Below, in pieces: positions 1 through 30,134 of a stretch of 32,000 nt of DNA (position 1 is the stretch's first letter; every line of letters begins with the position of its first letter). Origin of the DNA: Candidatus Electronema halotolerans (GTDB lineage: Bacteria; Desulfobacterota; Desulfobulbia; Desulfobulbales; Desulfobulbaceae); NCBI GenBank assembly GCA_942493095.1, contig OW818675.1, forward strand, positions 2,190,001 through 2,222,000, written 5' to 3'. The translations under genes and the position numbers were made by a program. Below the pieces are notes generated by a model. That model searched no databases. It was not told the origin of the DNA and saw only the letters and a program-made list of their open reading frames with translations.

Positions 1-378
1 AGCTTCCGGCACGGATGTGTCCGCATCATCCTCCATGCTGAAGAAGTCATCCAAGCCCTCATCTTCCGCTTCAGGCAGGGCCGCCGCTTCAGCATCCGGC
101 TCTGGAGCTTCCTCATCGCCGAAGAGACTTTCAGCTCCAAGCATGTCGTCAGCATCGTCCAAACTCAAACTGGCCGCGTCCTCAGCTTCAGCTTCCGGCA
201 CGGAAGTGTCCGCATCATCCTCCATGCTGAAGAAGTCATCCAAGCCCTCATCTTCCGCTTCAGGCAGGGCCGCCGCTTCAGCATCCGGTTCTGGAGCTTC
301 CTCCTCGCCGAAGAGACTTTCAGCCCCCAGCATGTCGTCAGCATCGTCCAGACTCAGACTGGCCGCTTCCTCTGCTTC
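1..378. repeat. Two tandem 189-nt (63-codon) units inside the acidic-protein gene
   Basis: Positions 1-189 and 190-378 align without gaps and differ at 9 positions by my count (about 95% identity). Diverged copies continue to about 1000. More copies may lie left of the window edge. Confidence 0.9.
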
Positions 379-3129
379 AGCTTGTTTTGTCTCTGGAGCT
401 TCCTCATCATCAAAAAGGCTGTCAGCAGTCAGTTCTTCAACATCGTCCAGACTCAAGCTGGCTATTTCGCCAGCATCCGACGGCTCTGCTGGCGTCTCTT
501 CTGCTCCGAAGAGACTTTCAGTTCCAAGCATGTCGGCATCGTCCAAATGCAGAGCGGTGGTTTCTTCAGCTTCTGGTGCGGACGTATCTGTGTCCTCATC
601 CATGCTGAAGAAACTGTCAGCACTCAGTTCTTCCGCATCGTCGAAACCAAGACTGGCTGATTCCTCTTCAGCGTCTGGCGCGGCTGCGTCTAACTCTTCA
701 TCCATGCTGAAAAAGTCATCCATGCCATCATCCTCTGCATCAGACAAAGTTGCCACTTCCGGCTCTGGAGTTTCTTCTGCTCCGAAGAGTTTGTCAGCTT
801 CCAGCATGTCAACATCATCCAAGCTCAGGCTGGCTGACTCCTCTTCAATTTCCGGCGGCTCTGTCTCTGCTGGGGCATCTTCTTCTCCAAAGACAAGACT
901 TTCAGCTTCCAGCATGTCAGCATCGTCCAAGCTCAAGCTGGCCGCTTCCTCAGCTTCAGGTTCAGTTGCGGATGTGTCGGCATTTTCATTCACCATTCCA
1001 GCCGCCGGTTCCGACTCTGAAGTTTTCTCATCGTCAAAAAGACGTTCAGCTCCAAACATGTCGTCATCAAGGTTGAAGAAAGAATCCAACTCGTCATCTT
1101 CTTCCTCAGACTGGGCAGCCGCCTTTTTTTCCAGCTGCGACCCTTCCTCAGCCTTGACCGCAGGCGCGTCATCATCAAAACTGAGAAGGGAGTCCATGCC
1201 GTCATCCTCTGCATCAGACAAAGCTGCGACAGGCTCCTCTGTCAGAGGGCTTTCCTCCGCCTCAGTTTTCAAGGCGGCAGCAGGCTCATTGTCGTCATCA
1301 AAATTGAAGAAAGAGTCTAATTCGTCATCGCTGTCGTCATCTTCATCATCCTCTCCAACCAAGGCGGCAACCGGCTGCGCTGGCACCGACTTCTCTGTCA
1401 AGGGACTGTCTTCCGTCTCTGTTTTCAAGGCGGCAGCAGGCTCATCGTCGTCATCAAAGTTGAAGAAGGAGTCTAATTCTAATTCATCATCCTCGTCGTC
1501 ATCTTCATCATCTTCTCCGGCCAAGGCGGCAACCGGCTGCGCTGGCACCGACTTCTCTGTCAAGGAACTGTTTTCCGTCTCAGCTTTCAAGGCGGCAGCA
1601 GGCTCATCGTCGTCATCAAAGTTGAAGAAGGAGTCTAATTCTAATTCAGAATCGTCATCATCTGAAGTCTCCGCAAGAGACATCGCAGGTTCGGCTGGCT
1701 CTGTTTCCAGATTTGCGCTCTTTTCTGTTTTATGCTGCGGACTCTCTACTGTCTGAGCTGCTCCGCCTGTATCTTCATCATCAAAATTAAAAAAGGAATC
1801 CAGTTTCTCATCAAATTCCGCCGCCCGCTCTTCCGTGATATCGCTTTCCAGTTTGGCAGCAAAGCCTCCTTCCTCATCCTCATCCGCCAAAGCCGGTGTC
1901 ACCCCTCCGTCACTGCTGAAAAGAGCTTCTCCCGGCCATTCATCATCGTCATCCTCATCCGCCGCAGGACGCAGCGAGGCGGCGGCTTGTGCAGGAGCCG
2001 CCTTTTCTGCAGGCGGAGCTTGTTTTGCAACAGCGTCCTCAGCAAAAAGATCATCTGCGGAACTGTCGTCCTCGTCATCAAACAGGTCCTCAATATCCAT
2101 CTCATCATCGGCAGCCGCGCTCGTCTCCTCCTGAGCAGCCGGTGCCTTTCCGGCGGCAGGAGCAGGCTCCTGTTCCGCTGAAGGCGCAACCTCCTCCTCT
2201 TCGGCCTCTGCGGCAGCGGCGGAACCTGCGGATTTGGCAATGACATCTTTCAAACTGTTGAGGCTGCCGATCTGCTCCACCAATATCTGCCGCCGCTGTT
2301 CCGCCGCCAAATTGGGACTGTCCAGCAGCATTTTCAGCGCATCATAAAAGGAATGGAGAATGGTGAAGGAATCTGGATGGGCATTGCTGGTCTGCTCGCG
2401 GATATAGGCTCCCAAGGCTTGCAGCCCCTGCACTAAGACCTGCGCCTCGGTGTTGCCGCTCAGATGCTGGCGCAGCGCAGATGCCTGCTGGTGGAATTGC
2501 TCCAAGCCCTCATCCGTGACATCCCACTCCAGACCAAGAATAGTGGCCTCCATGCTGCGGAGCGGCTCTGGAATATTGCTCTTCTCCTCTTCAGGAGCCG
2601 ACTTCTCAGGCGCAGGGGCAACGACAAGCTCCTCCTGCTCTTCCGCAACAGCCTCAGAAGGAGGCTCCTTGGCGGCCTTGGCCTTCCGCAGCGCGCTGAT
2701 TTGATACTGGAGGACCTTGAACTTGCGGATGTCGGCCTTGAGCATGGCCGTGATGTTCTCGCCGCTGATGTTGGGTGAGGAAATTATTTTTTCATAGTTG
2801 TAATAGAGCGTGAGCAGCAGCTTGATGGCATTGGGGTGAGCGTAGGCGCCTTCCGCCCGCAGATACTGCCCCACATTGTCCATGCCTTGGAGGTAAATCT
2901 GCGCGACCTTGTCCTCTTTCCAGAGGGCTTTCAGGTTGGCCAACTCTTCACTCAACTCAGTCAGGATATCATCGGTGATGTCCCAGTCCAGCGAGAGAAC
3001 GATTGATTTGAGTCTGAGCAGCGGCGAATCATCATCCTCTGCAAATTCAAACAAATCAACCTCTTCTGTATCAAACGACTCGTCTGCAAACTGGGTGAGA
3101 TCTTCAAACTCGTTGATTGAAGGGGCCAT
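1..3129 (-). CDS. Large hyper-acidic tandem-repeat protein; N-terminal 1043 codons, ORF still open at the window edge (partial)
   Basis: Absent from the supplied ORF track because it has no stop in the window. I read plus-strand frame 1 (positions 1,4,7...) from 1 to 3129 and found no TTA/CTA/TCA triplet, so there is no minus-strand stop. The ATG is the complement of cat at 3127-3129, 57 nt after the mglA-like stop. Translation starts MAPSINEFEDLTQFADESFD. It has two homologous helical modules (..LSLDWDITDD.., ..LGLEWDVTDE..) followed by D/E-rich repeats (LDSFFNFDDDDEPAAALK.., ASLSLDDADDMLGAESLFGEEE..). The 579-aa Ser-rich plus ORF at 17..1756 is its mirror image. Confidence 0.8.
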   Translation of the reverse strand, partial: MAPSINEFEDLTQFADESFDTEEVDLFEFAEDDDSPLLRLKSIVLSLDWDITDDILTELSEELANLKALWKEDKVAQIYLQGMDNVGQYLRAEGAYAHPNAIKLLLTLYYNYEKIISSPNISGENITAMLKADIRKFKVLQYQISALRKAKAAKEPPSEAVAEEQEELVVAPAPEKSAPEEEKSNIPEPLRSMEATILGLEWDVTDEGLEQFHQQASALRQHLSGNTEAQVLVQGLQALGAYIREQTSNAHPDSFTILHSFYDALKMLLDSPNLAAEQRRQILVEQIGSLNSLKDVIAKSAGSAAAAEAEEEEVAPSAEQEPAPAAGKAPAAQEETSAAADDEMDIEDLFDDEDDSSADDLFAEDAVAKQAPPAEKAAPAQAAASLRPAADEDDDDEWPGEALFSSDGGVTPALADEDEEGGFAAKLESDITEERAAEFDEKLDSFFNFDDEDTGGAAQTVESPQHKTEKSANLETEPAEPAMSLAETSDDDDSELELDSFFNFDDDDEPAAALKAETENSSLTEKSVPAQPVAALAGEDDEDDDEDDELELDSFFNFDDDDEPAAALKTETEDSPLTEKSVPAQPVAALVGEDDEDDDSDDELDSFFNFDDDNEPAAALKTEAEESPLTEEPVAALSDAEDDGMDSLLSFDDDAPAVKAEEGSQLEKKAAAQSEEEDDELDSFFNLDDDMFGAERLFDDEKTSESEPAAGMVNENADTSATEPEAEEAASLSLDDADMLEAESLVFGEEDAPAETEPPEIEEESASLSLDDVDMLEADKLFGAEETPEPEVATLSDAEDDGMDDFFSMDEELDAAAPDAEEESASLGFDDAEELSADSFFSMDEDTDTSAPEAEETTALHLDDADMLGTESLFGAEETPAEPSDAGEIASLSLDDVEELTADSLFDDEEAPETKQAEAEEAASLSLDDADDMLGAESLFGEEEAPEPDAEAAALPEAEDEGLDDFFSMEDDADTSVPEAEAEDAASLSLDDADDMLGAESLFGDEEAPEPDAEAAALPEAEDEGLDDFFSMEDDADTSVPEA
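1262..1650. repeat. Second in-gene tandem repeat family (periods 156 and 162 nt; two full copies plus one partial)
   Basis: The string caaggcggcagcagg recurs at 1270, 1426 and 1588. Long near-identical flanks encode ELELDSFFNFDDDDEPAAALK.ETE.S.LTEKSVPAQPVAAL.GEDDEDDD. Confidence 0.85.
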
Positions 3130-19700: not shown

Positions 19701-21003
19701 CCGCGAATTCGGCTCGCCGGAAAATCCGCTCCTGCTTTCAGTGCGCTCCGGGGCGGCCATTTCCATGCCCGGCATGATGACCACGGTCCACAACGTCGGC
19801 CTGAATGAGGATTTGCTCGACGAGCTGTGCGCCAGACACCCGGAGCAGGAGTATTTTCTCTGGGACACCTACCGCCGCTTTCTCCAGTCCTGGGCTATGG
19901 GCGAAGGCATGGCCCGCGATGAGTTTGGCGCACTGATGAATGCGCACAAGAAACGCTACAATGTCAAGCTCAAGCGGCAGTTCACTCCTGCCCAGATGCG
20001 CGAGCTGGCCTTGGAATACCGCAACGCCATGCGACGGCATGGCTATAATGCGCCGGAAGACCCGTGGCTTCAGCTTGTCGGCGCAGTGGAGATGGTGCTG
20101 GAGTCGTGGAGCACCATCAAGGCCCGCCAGTACCGCCATCTCATGGATGTGTCTGATGACTGGGGCACAGCAGTGATAGTCCAGACAATGGTCTATGGCA
20201 ATCGCAACTTTAAAGCAGGCAGCGGCGTGCTCTTCACGGCCCATCCCTACCGCAAGGTGCGACGGGTGGCTCTCTGGGGTGATTACGCCTCCGGCGACCA
20301 AGGCGAGGACATTGTTTCCGGCTTAGTCACCAGCTACCCGATTTCAATGGAGCAGGCGGAGCTGGACGGCAGGCCAGAGGAAGACACCTTGGAGCGCAAA
20401 TTTCCAGCCATTTATGAGCGGCTTCTCAGTATTTCCCGTGATTTGGTCTATACCAAGGGCTGGAATCCGCAGGAAATCGAGTTCACCTTTGAAGGCCCTG
20501 CACCGGAGCAGCTCCACATCCTCCAGACCCGCGACATGATCACGATCAAGAAGAAGGAGCATTTCCGGGTCTTTGTCGAATCAGCAGAGCAGCAGGCCGC
20601 AGTGCTGGGCAAGGGCATTGGCGTGAGCGGCTCGGCCCTGTCCGGCTTGGCCGTGTTCACCGACGAGAACATCCGCCAGCTCAGGCAGGAGCAGCCGGAC
20701 ATGCCGCTGATTCTCATCCGGCAGGACACGGTGCCAGAGGACATTAAGGAAATTTCCCTTGCCGACGGCCTGCTCACGGCTCGCGGCGGCCAGACTTCCC
20801 ATGCCTCAGTGGTGGCCACCCGCTTGGAAAAGACCTGCGTGGTCGGCTGCCGGGATCTGCAAGTCTTTGAAGGCGCGGAACATGCTCTGATCAACGGCTT
20901 CACCATCCGCTTCCGCGATCCGGTCTCCATTGACGGACGCAACGGCCTCTTCCTGCGCGGCATTCATGAGACACGGGAGGAGGTGCATATTCTGCCGCTG
21001 TAG
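16756..21003 (+). CDS. 1415-aa fusion protein: about 900-aa unrecognised helical N-terminal region plus PPDK-type ATP-grasp (nucleotide-binding) and phospho-His swivel domains; no PEP/pyruvate TIM-barrel domain
   Basis: From about nt 19500 the translation is collinear with the N-terminal half of pyruvate phosphate dikinase (..HLGNKGFNL.., NPLLLSVRSGAAISMPGMMTTVHNVGLN, DDWGTAVIVQTMVYGN, GDQGEDIVSG, EIEFTFE..LHILQTRD). It then reaches the swivel-domain motif GLLTARGGQTSHASVVAT (His codon 20800-20802). The ORF ends about 65 aa later. The ATG at 16756 with a GAGG RBS is preferred over the TTG at 16690, which lies inside the hairpin. Confidence 0.8.
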   Translation: MTTPAQQTAEFRSKALEANFQQTASKVEISPRYAPLREAVARYQGLSARLEHLLYEISHPFRNWQLIISELRPFVLKNFNHYLGHPQGPECFALFSGIFLDALRESRKNSKVTALTVEALLAFADKVISSLKPETLPLYGPQLNNFFDQLARLDEIDSSLMMQMVQGHHPIKKMAVQLLSLGRATAFSCIPAARLLQKILITNYEYWLSEDDPQPWFEQHCGGFCDKWEARPEMAAIAHARMREHLQTLEQIDLEEDPHQALSKLLELPAHVDIVRLYREIPGKLGEGIEGGDAFYMENRKLLFLFRIMDTSGLSLIHEESLREINRSLVQLIRKQNFDEIEQFFTTAFQLLKANVRKYPHTSLQCIQVIGGEVFKRGNSRLVEAFLFEAVRFGFQYANVMGVDEDWQPISNPAHLANIRVWLNLIMQEPKWCSTLFSALIINIRLSGTCVKDTDLFQRDISQLLNHPIGPIYNLAKQFTKLMPVFFNEIGAEGELRDVSTELDELHKRRDVLIHFLRKQSHVESSNLIVGFIRAIFLFWLNLDKKPLKAYLPEEILSQVTVSGPFVDELHVLARRLREELEWNSIDELLTWDRTERHAWLERQEDISADERRRFDLLVRMFRLLNHKYSLGMEELREQLQQAARSGFPEMEQLLESLQEDEPYSCLDALLTHLEQLKEIILSEQKFEPKEEIYYKRHIAVDIPSVYGRYSERKFDALGLAFRLENLANIYLERLTRSINLGFITQATFIRISEALHLYLRALKVDGISSRRLDTYASLLASSISMKRFTYTQHLDIMRGLSEGVKDVIYAYYTNIHQNNLSIIIPQIGRENLLLKFRPLWDEEDMPSTVHRLSEAFFRDLIATTFGLQHLDNFITKIMQTLEAQKDILDEQTLDLLMTYNPEQTISLLYQENLRTHNLIHLGNKGFNLMLLANDGKPVPPAFIITTEIFRCWPAVQRFTKAKEEFMQRVRASITALEERTGREFGSPENPLLLSVRSGAAISMPGMMTTVHNVGLNEDLLDELCARHPEQEYFLWDTYRRFLQSWAMGEGMARDEFGALMNAHKKRYNVKLKRQFTPAQMRELALEYRNAMRRHGYNAPEDPWLQLVGAVEMVLESWSTIKARQYRHLMDVSDDWGTAVIVQTMVYGNRNFKAGSGVLFTAHPYRKVRRVALWGDYASGDQGEDIVSGLVTSYPISMEQAELDGRPEEDTLERKFPAIYERLLSISRDLVYTKGWNPQEIEFTFEGPAPEQLHILQTRDMITIKKKEHFRVFVESAEQQAAVLGKGIGVSGSALSGLAVFTDENIRQLRQEQPDMPLILIRQDTVPEDIKEISLADGLLTARGGQTSHASVVATRLEKTCVVGCRDLQVFEGAEHALINGFTIRFRDPVSIDGRNGLFLRGIHETREEVHILPL

Positions 21004-26860: not shown

Positions 26861-27106
26861 ATGGATGCTAAACTGACCTTGCAAATAGATGGTTCCGTCA
26901 TTGCATCTGCGAAACAGTTCGCTGCTGCGCGTCACACTTCGCTGTCAAAGCTGGTGGAGAACTACCTGAAAAGCATCACTCGTGAAACTGGCCAGGAGAA
27001 ACGGCTGCCGGGCGTTGTCGGCGAACTTGCCGGTCTGCTGAAGGGCGTGGATGCGGACGAAAGCAGGAAAGCGCAGGCTGATCATCTGGAAGAGAAGTAC
27101 AGATGA
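26861..27106 (+). CDS. Type II antitoxin (DUF6364-like, partner of the PIN toxin)
   Basis: The 81-aa ORF MDAKLTLQIDGSVIASAKQFAAARHTSLSKLVENYLKSI.. matches the small antitoxin family usually paired with PIN toxins. GAGGA RBS. Its stop overlaps the toxin start as ATGA. Confidence 0.7.
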   Translation: MDAKLTLQIDGSVIASAKQFAAARHTSLSKLVENYLKSITRETGQEKRLPGVVGELAGLLKGVDADESRKAQADHLEEKYR

Positions 27107-27513
27107 ATACGATCTTTCTGGATGCGGATGTCATTCTTGATCTGCTGACAGAGCGGGAGCCGCATTTTGAACCGGCAGCACAGCTCTTTCTCAGGATTCA
27201 GGGTAAGGAGCTGAACGCCTGCACTTCGCCGGTTGTCATCGCCAACATCTTTTACATCCTCAACAAGCATATTGGCCGGGAAAGAGCGGTTCAGGCAATC
27301 AGAAAACTCAGGACTCTGGTCAAGGTGCTCACTTGCGGAGAACGCATCATTGATGCGGCGCTTGCTTCAGATTTTACTGATTTTGAAGATGCGATCCAAT
27401 ACAGCACTGCGCTGGCGCACAAGATAGACACGCTCATCACAAGAAATGTGACAGATTACAAAACAGCAACGATCAAGATAGTGACACCGCTTGAGTATAT
27501 CGAAAGCATGTAA
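27103..27513 (+). CDS. vapC: PIN-domain toxin (VapC family)
   Basis: 136 aa with N-terminal FLDADVILD (first acidic residue), a central E, DFEDAIQ and C-terminal LITRNVTDY, the canonical PIN acidic constellation and layout. Confidence 0.8.
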   Translation: MNTIFLDADVILDLLTEREPHFEPAAQLFLRIQGKELNACTSPVVIANIFYILNKHIGRERAVQAIRKLRTLVKVLTCGERIIDAALASDFTDFEDAIQYSTALAHKIDTLITRNVTDYKTATIKIVTPLEYIESM

Positions 27514-27518
27514 ATTGT

Positions 27519-27567
27519 ATCCAGATTGTTTTTCAGGCGGGCTGAGGGAAGGGGCGGCAGGCCGGTG
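27519..27567 (+). repeat. Right copy of the direct repeat bracketing the TA cassette
   Basis: It lies exactly 800 bp from the left copy and starts 6 nt after the vapC stop. Confidence 0.95.
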
Positions 27568-27719: not shown

Positions 27720-28401
27720 GTGCTCAACGCCTTTCGGCATCAAAGATAGAATCACCTTTCTGACACTGCCAGTCACGTTCCCATCGCCCTGTGCTCAACG
27801 CCTTTCGGCATCAAAGATAGAATCACAAACCGAGATATAAAATGTACAATTCTGTGACACTGTGCTCAACGCCTTTCGGCATCAAAGATAGAATCACCAC
27901 TCACAGCGAACTTCCGGCTCACCGTTGACGATGTGCTCAACGCCTTTCGGCATCAAAGATAGAATCACGCCTGCGCTGATGCTTTGTCGGCATGGTCTCG
28001 ATACAAGGTGCTCAACGCCTTTCGGCATCAAAGATAGAATCACCAGGTTGAGGAGGTCATCGTACTGGGCTTTGCGTTGTGCTCAACGCCTTTCGGCATC
28101 AAAGATAGAATCACTCCATACCTGCGGCGGCAGAAAAGTTTCTGACACGGCCGTGCTCAACGCCTTTCGGCATCAAAGATAGAATCACTTCCTTGGTCAA
28201 TCCTTGGTTAATCCTTCTTTAGCGTGCTCAACGCCTTTCGGCATCAAAGATAGAATCACACAGCAGCCACCAAGACCACAACAGAGCAGACCACGTGCTC
28301 AACGCCTTTCGGCATCAAAGATAGAATCACCTGGAAGAGGATGACAGATTTAAGGTAAGGGCCTGGTGCTCAACGCCTTTCGGCATCAAAGATAGAATCA
28401 C
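27720..28401. CRISPR. CRISPR array: 10 identical 36-bp repeats and 9 spacers (35-39 bp); no cas genes in the window
   Basis: The repeat GTGCTCAACGCCTTTCGGCATCAAAGATAGAATCAC starts at 27720, 27791, 27862, 27933, 28008, 28079, 28153, 28224, 28295 and 28366. Spacer lengths are 35,35,35,39,35,38,35,35,35 and all spacers are unique. Orientation is unresolved: all repeats are identical, and the reverse complement ends GTTGAGCAC, only loosely like the ATTGAAAC class-1 handle. Confidence 0.95.
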
Positions 28402-28694
28402 AGCCCTTCCCGCAGCTCCCTGCTGACGGGCTGTGCAGCACGATAAATCAAGCTGGCCTGCTGTTCCGCTGCTGCTGCCTGCAATACGAGCAATTTCTTT
28501 TAGCCCTCCCTTGCTCAGGTTAATGGTTTTGCATGAAAAAATCCCAAATCAAGCACCTGCTGCCCCTGTCGGCGGCTACATTCAGCCGCTGTAGCAGTAC
28601 GTTACCGCCGATATCTGCAAACCTGCTGATAGTATCATGGATGCCCATGAGTTGGCAAGAAAATTTTTCTCGTTCTTCTGCTCCAGCGCGGGAA

Positions 28695-28922
28695 TCAGCT
28701 TGTTGCTCTGATCGGACTGACATCCCCTGCTGTCACCCGGTGTTCTCTGCCGGACGCATCCGCAACAATATATCGCCCATCCTCGGCCAAACCCGCGCCA
28801 ACCGTTGGGAGCATTTCCTTGCCGCTGTCATACTCCAAGGGCTTGCCAAGCAGATAATCTAACCTGCGCCATTCTTCCAGCAGAGCAGTCTTGCCGCCGT
28901 TCTCAAGCCGCTGCCCTGCCGT
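28695..28922 (-). pseudogene. birA: Remnant encoding only the C-terminal domain of a biotin--protein ligase (BirA-like)
   Basis: ..RLENGGKTALLEEWRRLDYLLGKPLEYDSGKEMLPTVGAGLAEDGRYIVADASGREHRVTAGDVSPIR follows the BirA C-terminal pattern (F..G...l..W..l....G..V.......G.a.giD..G.L.v.......v.aGeVs.R). No catalytic domain lies upstream, and the similarity starts right at the 28930-28980 inverted repeat. Confidence 0.4.
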
Positions 28923-28929
28923 GTGCAGA

Positions 28930-28980
28930 TGTTCCATGCCGGGCAGCAGAGCCGGAACATCTGCTGCCCGGCATGGAACA
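28930..28980. repeat. 20-bp perfect inverted repeat with an 11-nt loop
   Basis: tgttccatgccgggcagcag (28930-28949) pairs with ctgctgcccggcatggaaca (28961-28980). An alternative 10-bp pairing exists between cagatgttcc (28926-28935) and ggaacatctg (28954-28963). Confidence 0.85.
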
Positions 28981-29023
28981 CTGGGAGGAAATGACCATGC
29001 CAAAGAGTGCGAATAGCGCGTAA

Positions 29024-29246: not shown

Positions 29247-30134
29247 ATGAAAGGCATCATTCTCGCGGGCGGCTCCGGCACCCGCCTTTATCCGCTGACC
29301 CAAGTCATCAGCAAGCAGCTCATCCCGGTCTATGACAAGCCGATGATCTATTACCCGTTGGCCGTGCTGATGCTGGCGGGCATCCGCGACATCCTCCTCA
29401 TTTCCACGCCAGAAGACCTGCCCCGCTTCAGCCAGCTTTTCGGCGACGGCTCGCAGCTCGGCCTGAACATCTCCTACGCCGAGCAGCCCCGACCGGAAGG
29501 ACTGGCGCAAGCCTTTCTGCTCGGCAAGAAATTCATCGGCAGATCAGCGGTCTCCTTGGTGCTTGGGGACAACATCTTTTTCGGTCCCGGCTTTCAGCAG
29601 ATCGTCAAGCGATGCCGGAATCTGAAGAACAACGAAGGCGGCATCATCTTCGGTTATTTGGTCAAAGACCCGGAACGCTACGGCGTGGTCGAGTTTGACG
29701 CGGAAAAGAATGTGGTCAGCATTGAGGAAAAACCAGCCAAGCCCAAGTCGCGCTACGCAGTGCCGGGCCTCTATTTTTACGACAACAGCGTGGTCGAGAT
29801 TGCCGAGTCGATCAAGCCGTCAGCGCGGGGCGAGCTGGAAATCACGGATGTCAACCGCACCTATTTGCAGCAGGGCCGACTGCGGGTGGAGCTGCTCGGA
29901 CGCGGCTTCTGCTGGTTGGACACAGGCACGCATGAATCGCTCCAGCAGGCATCCGCTTATGTGCAGGCAGTGCAGGATCGGCAAGGCCTGAAGATCGCCT
30001 GCATTGAGGAAATCGCTTGGCGGATGGGCTACATTGACGCAGAGCAGGTGGAGCAGATTGCCCAGCAGATGCTCAAGAATCAGTACGGCCAGTACCTGAT
30101 GGCCATACTCAGGGAGGAGGGTGCGAAGCAATGA
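29247..30134 (+). CDS. rfbA: Glucose-1-phosphate thymidylyltransferase
   Basis: [18 protein letters not shown]...[28 protein letters not shown] is the canonical RmlA N-terminus. Length is 295 aa. Confidence 0.95.

Follow-up and report, generated by a model that had tools for sequence, protein, structure and literature searches.

The segment from 27720 to 28401 of the window (the whole 32,000-nucleotide stretch analysed here, which corresponds to positions 2190001-2222000 of the host genome, itself a single 3.2-Mb contig) is a genuine CRISPR array, and it can be assigned to subtype I-B (Myxan). Two further arrays of the same repeat exist in the genome, and the cognate cas genes are absent from the assembly, whose completeness is estimated at 94%. 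We favour, with a probability of about 0.7, the view that the three arrays are recently stranded remnants of an I-B (Myxan) system, still transcribed and unable to be processed or used.

A ten-repeat array and its surroundings

A search on the plus strand recovered ten exact copies of one 36-nt repeat, starting at positions 27720, 27791, 27862, 27933, 28008, 28079, 28153, 28224, 28295 and 28366, with the last copy ending at 28401. The spacers between them measure, from left to right, 35, 35, 35, 39, 35, 38, 35, 35 and 35 nt, and all nine are unique. Ten identical 36-mers at such a regular spacing make a chance origin impossible, and the window array has what is generally expected of a CRISPR array, namely three or more nearly identical direct repeats, each of 23-50 nt, with unique spacers of comparable length between them. 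A preliminary description of this DNA had reported ten identical 36-bp repeats with unique spacers of 35-39 bp, and this is borne out by the positions of the exact copies and by the comparison of the spacers. As read on the minus strand, the repeat is GTGATTCTATCTTTGATGCCGAAAGGCGTTGAGCAC. On the same strand a GTGTCA(G/C)A-type core is common to three spacers (27756-27790, 27827-27861 and 28115-28152), by chance or maybe through related targets. The features of the region are listed below.

27720..28401, minus strand: CRISPR array of 10 repeats and 9 spacers; strand assigned from the repeat family and from the position of the cas genes in other genomes
28402..28680 (end approximate), minus strand: leader of about 275 nt, the flank common to all three arrays
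28629..28658, minus strand: promoter-like site, TTGCCA, 18 nt, TACTAT, with an upstream TG, kept in all three leaders
26861..27513, plus strand: DUF6364 and PIN toxin-antitoxin pair, from annotation, on the trailer side of the array and outside the CRISPR unit
28695..29003, minus strand: C-terminal fragment of a birA paralogue, matching the C-terminal third of biotin ligase

No cas gene was found among the large ORFs annotated across the window, whose products include a leucyl-tRNA synthetase, a solute-binding protein, an ABC-F protein, a DEAD-box helicase and an eIF-2B-family (IF-2B domain) protein. The annotation thus agrees with the earlier claim of an array devoid of cas neighbours, and it also places the neighbours that had been named, the toxin-antitoxin cassette (the DUF6364 and PIN pair), the birA remnant (the C-terminal fragment) and rfbA; rfbA and rmlD start at 29247, to the right of the array. 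An upstream ORF of 1437 aa, considered as a possible large effector, was ruled out as it corresponds to a PPDK-like protein.

The birA fragment shares 77% DNA identity with the intact birA found at genome positions 2486174-2486917. It abuts the far end of the leader, which is the place of cas2 in complete loci, and it marks a rearrangement junction. On the trailer side, the toxin-antitoxin cassette is missing from some strains, as indicated by contigs of DNA run X3 in which 26822 is joined to 27519. A different junction, at 27567, was seen in contigs of three runs, and this cassette of strain-variable presence lies between a 23-bp palindrome array and the CRISPR array. At the left end of the window, an open frame of 1043 aa (1-3129, minus strand) without any Pfam match contains tandem repeats of 189 nt and 162 nt, at window positions 1-383 and 1237-1648, which code for an acidic and repetitive sequence.

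Repeat family, subtype and cognate cas genes

We scanned 596 Gb of genomes for the 3'-terminal 12 nt of the reverse complement of the repeat, present twice at CRISPR spacing. Matches came from at least 120 contigs of cyanobacteria, myxobacteria, planctomycetes, acidobacteria and Thermodesulfobacteriota, and they gave at least 88 distinct consensus repeats that form one family. Its members are 36 nt long, start with GTG, vary in their 5' third and continue with GAUGCC, a loop of 4 nt, which is GNRA in most cases and UUCG in some, and GGCGUUGAGCAC; the period is 70-73 nt, and in the minus-strand reading, the 3' end of the family is GAUGCCGnAAGGCGUUGAGCAC. The search pattern imposed the last 12 nt only; the other conserved features, namely GTG at the start, GAUGCC in the stem arm, the length of 36 nt and the period of 70-73 nt, were left free by it. 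Read on the minus strand, the window repeat agrees with every conserved position of the family and folds into the expected hairpin, and the nearest foreign repeat among the matches listed differs from it by 2 mismatches. The window array therefore presents the repeat expected of type I-B (Myxan), namely 36 nt with a hairpin bearing a 4-nt loop, followed by GUUGAGCAC, and spacers of about 35 nt.

The genes adjoining the arrays of this family encode I-MYXAN Cas3, Cmx8, a DevR-type Cas7, Cas5, a Cas4-Cas1 fusion and Cas2, with Cmx6 (Cas6) at the head of the operon. The gene order is cmx6, cas3, cmx8, cas7, cas5, cas4/1 and cas2, and the arrays lie directly downstream. Among the foreign arrays listed whose leader side extends over 2.5 kb or more, 38 of 43 (88%) have a Myxan-type cas4/1 upstream on the same strand, and for the foreign arrays listed the median distance from cas4/1 to the first repeat is 564 nt; on the trailer side, cas4/1 was found in 0 of 34. 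Since cas4/1 lies upstream on the same strand in these relatives, the window array is read on the minus strand, and its right flank is therefore the leader. The repeat family and the adjoining cas genes also settle the subtype: the preliminary description had seen class 1 dimensions (I-B/I-D/I-G/III-like), a statement that holds and is now narrowed to I-B (Myxan).

The corresponding genes are absent from the host genome. A six-frame HMM search of the genome found none of Cas1, Cas2, Cmx8, Cmx6 and DevR-type Cas7, the models including PF01867 (Cas1), PF09827 (Cas2) and TIGR04413 (Cmx8). The Cas1, Cas2 and DevR searches were positive in control genomes, and the TIGR04413 search finds complete operons in 5-6 relatives, such as genomes G016 and G114, with arrays of the family 4-5 kb away. 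The Cmx6 model matched no control genome, and the absence of Cmx6 rests on tblastn with the Cmx6 of a relative, a protein which that model recognises. A tblastn search with I-Myxan proteins from three foreign sets, one of them being the closest and belonging to the same family, gave nothing, and no pseudogene fragment either. The signature large subunit Cmx8 (Cas8b) is thus absent from the genome by both TIGR04413 and tblastn, and the set of Cas6b/Cmx6, DevR-type Cas7 and Cas5 by which a I-B (Myxan) system is recognised was not found there. Beside the leader, the Cas4-Cas1 fusion and Cas2 are absent as judged by HMM and tblastn, and the birA fragment stands at the place of cas2. Among nine other genomes of the genus none contained the repeat, the leader or Cmx8, and the full repeat with at most 3 mismatches was not found in 40 relatives. 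It had been pointed out beforehand that a cas operon with the same repeat elsewhere would turn the window array into an ordinary satellite; HMM and tblastn searches of this one-contig genome revealed no such operon.

Sister arrays, leader and promoter

A search for the window repeat elsewhere in the genome, as the preliminary description had proposed, uncovered two more arrays, neither of them beside cas genes. The three arrays (4, 10 and 25 repeats) are in one orientation. The window array is called A2 below and the two others are the following.

Genome 1013484-1013733: array A1, 4 repeats, between ispG and the aconitase gene
Genome 2934851-2937744: array A3, 25 repeats, preceded by a tRNA gene and a DsrOP-like respiratory cluster

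The annotation of the neighbourhoods shows no cas gene within 10 kb of any of the three arrays. In this 94%-complete assembly they are therefore orphan arrays in the accepted sense of having no cas gene within 10 kb (PMC5294841), and the genome in addition holds no cognate cas set. The place of cas2 is taken by the birA fragment in the window, by the aconitase gene at A1 and by an unrelated ORF at A3. Across the three arrays, 31 of the 39 repeats are identical, and about 36-37 of them are identical or one base off. A3 is broken by an IS1 family transposase gene, at a repeat edge, and by two small inverted-repeat elements (MITE) of about 130 nt, which face opposite ways and are each inserted at the same TA of a separate repeat. 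The three leader-proximal repeats of A3 have one variant base in common, the final base of the repeat when read as in the crRNA, a pattern expected if a mutation of the first repeat had then been copied in two more acquisitions. The repeats concerned lie at 2937567-2937744, and the same variant base is also present in two internal repeats, at 2935475 and 2935547. A type II reading, suggested by an RNase III gene near A3 and by the 36-nt repeat, was rejected, as this rnc is a housekeeping gene in its context, the spacers measure 35 nt and repeats of this family go with I-B.

The window leader shares 98% identity with the flank of A1 and 83% with that of A3, and within the genome it was found at the three arrays only. 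It aligns with the leaders that separate cas2 from the first repeat in I-Myxan loci of the same family, the best alignment being with G016. A search of 118 other family genomes gave only two short and weak matches, and JGI metagenomes contained no match to a leader motif of 27 nt. With a homologous flank shared by the arrays and a promoter-like site, which lies at its far end, this region has the general traits of a leader carrying a promoter.

As for expression, a contig of 221 nt from salt-marsh metatranscriptome X6 is identical to window positions 28385-28605, including both bases that separate the window leader from the A1 leader. It covers leader sequence together with the margin of the first repeat and stops 17 nt short of the start site predicted from the promoter-like site. 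The depth of this contig, 444 compared with 32 for the toxin-antitoxin contig and 13 for the rfbA contig of the same run, hints that the leader promoter is active, as contig-level evidence that leaves the array interior uncovered and cannot prove transcription, strand or processing.

In RNA run X16, a related leader is followed by just one repeat, after which other genes come. Metagenome contig L172 (Ga0316592_1011043) carries at 1557-1828 a leader about 88% identical, followed by a single repeat; short GTGCT-type reiterations are found ahead of this repeat, and the genes that come after it lie near 1.536 Mb and 3.023 Mb in the present genome. The arrangement is the same in both, which means that leader-plus-repeat units occur at different places in related strains. 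We had also considered X16 as coming from a related strain with different leader-proximal spacers, and this was dropped because L172 has a leader and a single repeat in another genomic context.

Origin and possible use of the arrays

The type I-B system of Synechocystis sp. PCC 6714, called the Myxan variant by its authors (PMC11096372; PDB 8H67), produces 71-nt crRNAs, has Cas6b in its complex and uses a 5'-AYG PAM (PMC11096372). Its array, borne by plasmid pSYLB, resembles that of the window in its 36-nt repeat with the same invariant 3' core, GAUGCCGnAAGGCGUUGAGCAC, its spacers of about 35 nt and its 71-nt units, and it runs in the direction of cas2, downstream of cas2 and of the leader, which is the same layout; the two repeats differ in the 5' third and in one loop base. 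Unlike the window array, it has a full operon (cmx6, cas3, cmx8, cas7, cas5, cas4/1 and cas2) at its side. Genomes G016 and G114, of the same bacterial family, share the repeat family with 4-5 mismatches, and the leader of G016 is recognisably homologous to the window leader. In both, a complete operon ending in cas2 is followed by a leader of about 225-260 nt and then by the array. They belong to other genera, whereas the present genome keeps leader-plus-array units only, at three unrelated chromosomal sites.

Orphan arrays, such as CRISPR2 of Enterococcus faecalis, are well documented, and those that have been surveyed are read as remnants that could work again if cas genes were supplied (PMC5294841, PMC4580645, PMC4894674). 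Like them, the arrays described here are true arrays that lack cas genes within 10 kb as well as a cognate cas set anywhere in the genome. They differ in that three arrays of the type I-B family are present, each with a full leader, and in being accompanied by two further CRISPR loci which also lack adaptation genes.

One of these loci is of type I-F (genome 1077910-1085624) and consists of csy1, csy2, csy3, csy4 and cas3f followed by an array of about 13 repeats of 28 nt; its Cas3f is devoid of the N-terminal Cas2 domain, and cas1 is missing from the genome. The other is a type III-C effector locus (genome 428900-440900) encoding a PF10040-type Cas6, a Cmr1-like protein, a Csx11-type Cas10 and a Cmr4-like protein, with an IS1 or IS1-like ORF inside the operon. 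On both sides of the III-C locus lie several mini-arrays, in part inverted, built on a second 36-nt repeat. Both resident loci lack cas1 and cas2, their repeats are unlike the window repeat in sequence, fold and 3' tag, and no similarity was detectable between the III-C Cas6 and Cmx6. Elsewhere in the genome, a weak cas3-HD-like match, under the cut-off of the model, was noticed at 20616-20969.

The spacers were compared with viral and plasmid databases and with the host genome, a check recommended in the preliminary description, and no protospacer was found. This holds for the window array and most of A3 against GenBank phages, for six seed-end fragments of the newest spacers against IMG/VR, and for the window array against plasmids and against 119 family genomes, where all matches reflected repeat-to-repeat similarity. 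An 80% match over 41 nt in genome G116 is probably due to chance. All 33 parsed spacers are different, and none matches elsewhere in this genome.

The array is read on the minus strand from the leader of about 275 nt, which carries its own promoter-like site and which, in complete systems, follows cas2. In such systems Cas6b (Cmx6) cuts the pre-crRNA at the small GNRA-loop hairpin to give 71-nt crRNAs, and these are loaded into a Cas8b/Cas7/Cas5 Cascade that recruits Cas3. In the present strain the leader promoter probably still fires, and a transcript deprived of Cas6b and Cascade would confer no immunity. Loss of the cas operon in the recent past is the most likely origin of this situation: the repeats stayed constant long past the separation of the arrays, while the leaders differ by 2% (A1 and A2) and by 17% (A3 and A2), which points to a recent loss, as does the variant base of the leader-proximal A3 repeats, expected if spacer addition went on once the first repeat had mutated. 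The IS1 and the two small transposons inserted in A3 indicate that no strong selection now bears on the arrays. We infer from the missing genes that processing is lacking and that the arrays are inert.

Several observations count against stranded remnants. An assembly 94% complete could lack a plasmid, and the Synechocystis 6714 system is plasmid-borne; the repeats are almost undecayed; and the apparent transcription of the leader is well above that of its neighbours, which need not be the case for a dead relic. The same facts, together with the intact leaders and the circulation of the operon in other genera of the family, would suit a cognate I-B (Myxan) operon located on an unassembled plasmid or on a strain-variable island, with the arrays as its working satellites. 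We regard this as unlikely, given that the chromosome is a single 3.2-Mb contig, that nine other genomes of the genus have neither operon nor repeat nor leader, that cas4/1 adjoins 88% of the listed family arrays with enough flank and 0 of 3 here, and that A3 tolerates one IS1 and two MITE insertions. A use of the array transcripts as guides by the resident I-F or III-C modules, which are themselves devoid of adaptation genes, seems to us rather improbable. Type III complexes are able to borrow crRNAs from co-resident type I arrays, both loci lack cas1 and cas2, and the leader promoter appears active; however, Cas6f is highly repeat-specific, the resident repeats are unrelated to that of the window in sequence, fold and 3' tag, the III-C Cas6 bears no similarity to Cmx6, and the III-C operon is interrupted by IS1. 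The suggestion, made in the preliminary description, that a cas locus elsewhere might serve the array in trans is accordingly unlikely, as the two effector loci of the genome have unrelated repeats and an unrelated Cas6.

That the arrays are kept for a non-immune role, as a regulatory RNA, a decoy or a structural element of the chromosome, would be in line with the good apparent transcription of the leader and with the expression, without processing, of some orphan arrays of other bacteria (PMC5294841). Nevertheless, no spacer matches the organism's own genome, the content of the arrays is heterogeneous, mobile-element insertions are tolerated in A3 and nothing about the arrays is kept across the genus, so that this role appears very improbable. 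Taken more broadly, the idea that the arrays are alive, be it as transcribed guides of the I-F or III-C effectors or as a stored memory to be revived on re-acquisition of the I-B (Myxan) operon, which circulates in sister genera, is one that we hold to be improbable. The preferred reading thus remains that of recently stranded I-B (Myxan) arrays, the leftover of a known immune system of a kind already well documented, and not a new device or mechanism.

The main value of these results is one of annotation, since the subtype, the strand and the leader of the array are now fixed. The arrays also offer a clean natural case in which to ask whether stranded arrays stay expressed and can be reactivated. 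Altogether, spacer acquisition has been lost in all three CRISPR systems of this cable bacterium, which has orphan I-B arrays, a Cas1-less I-F locus and an IS-disrupted III-C locus. This threefold loss is a modest pointer to an adaptive immunity that may be eroding in a filamentous bacterium of sediments, about whose phages hardly anything is known.
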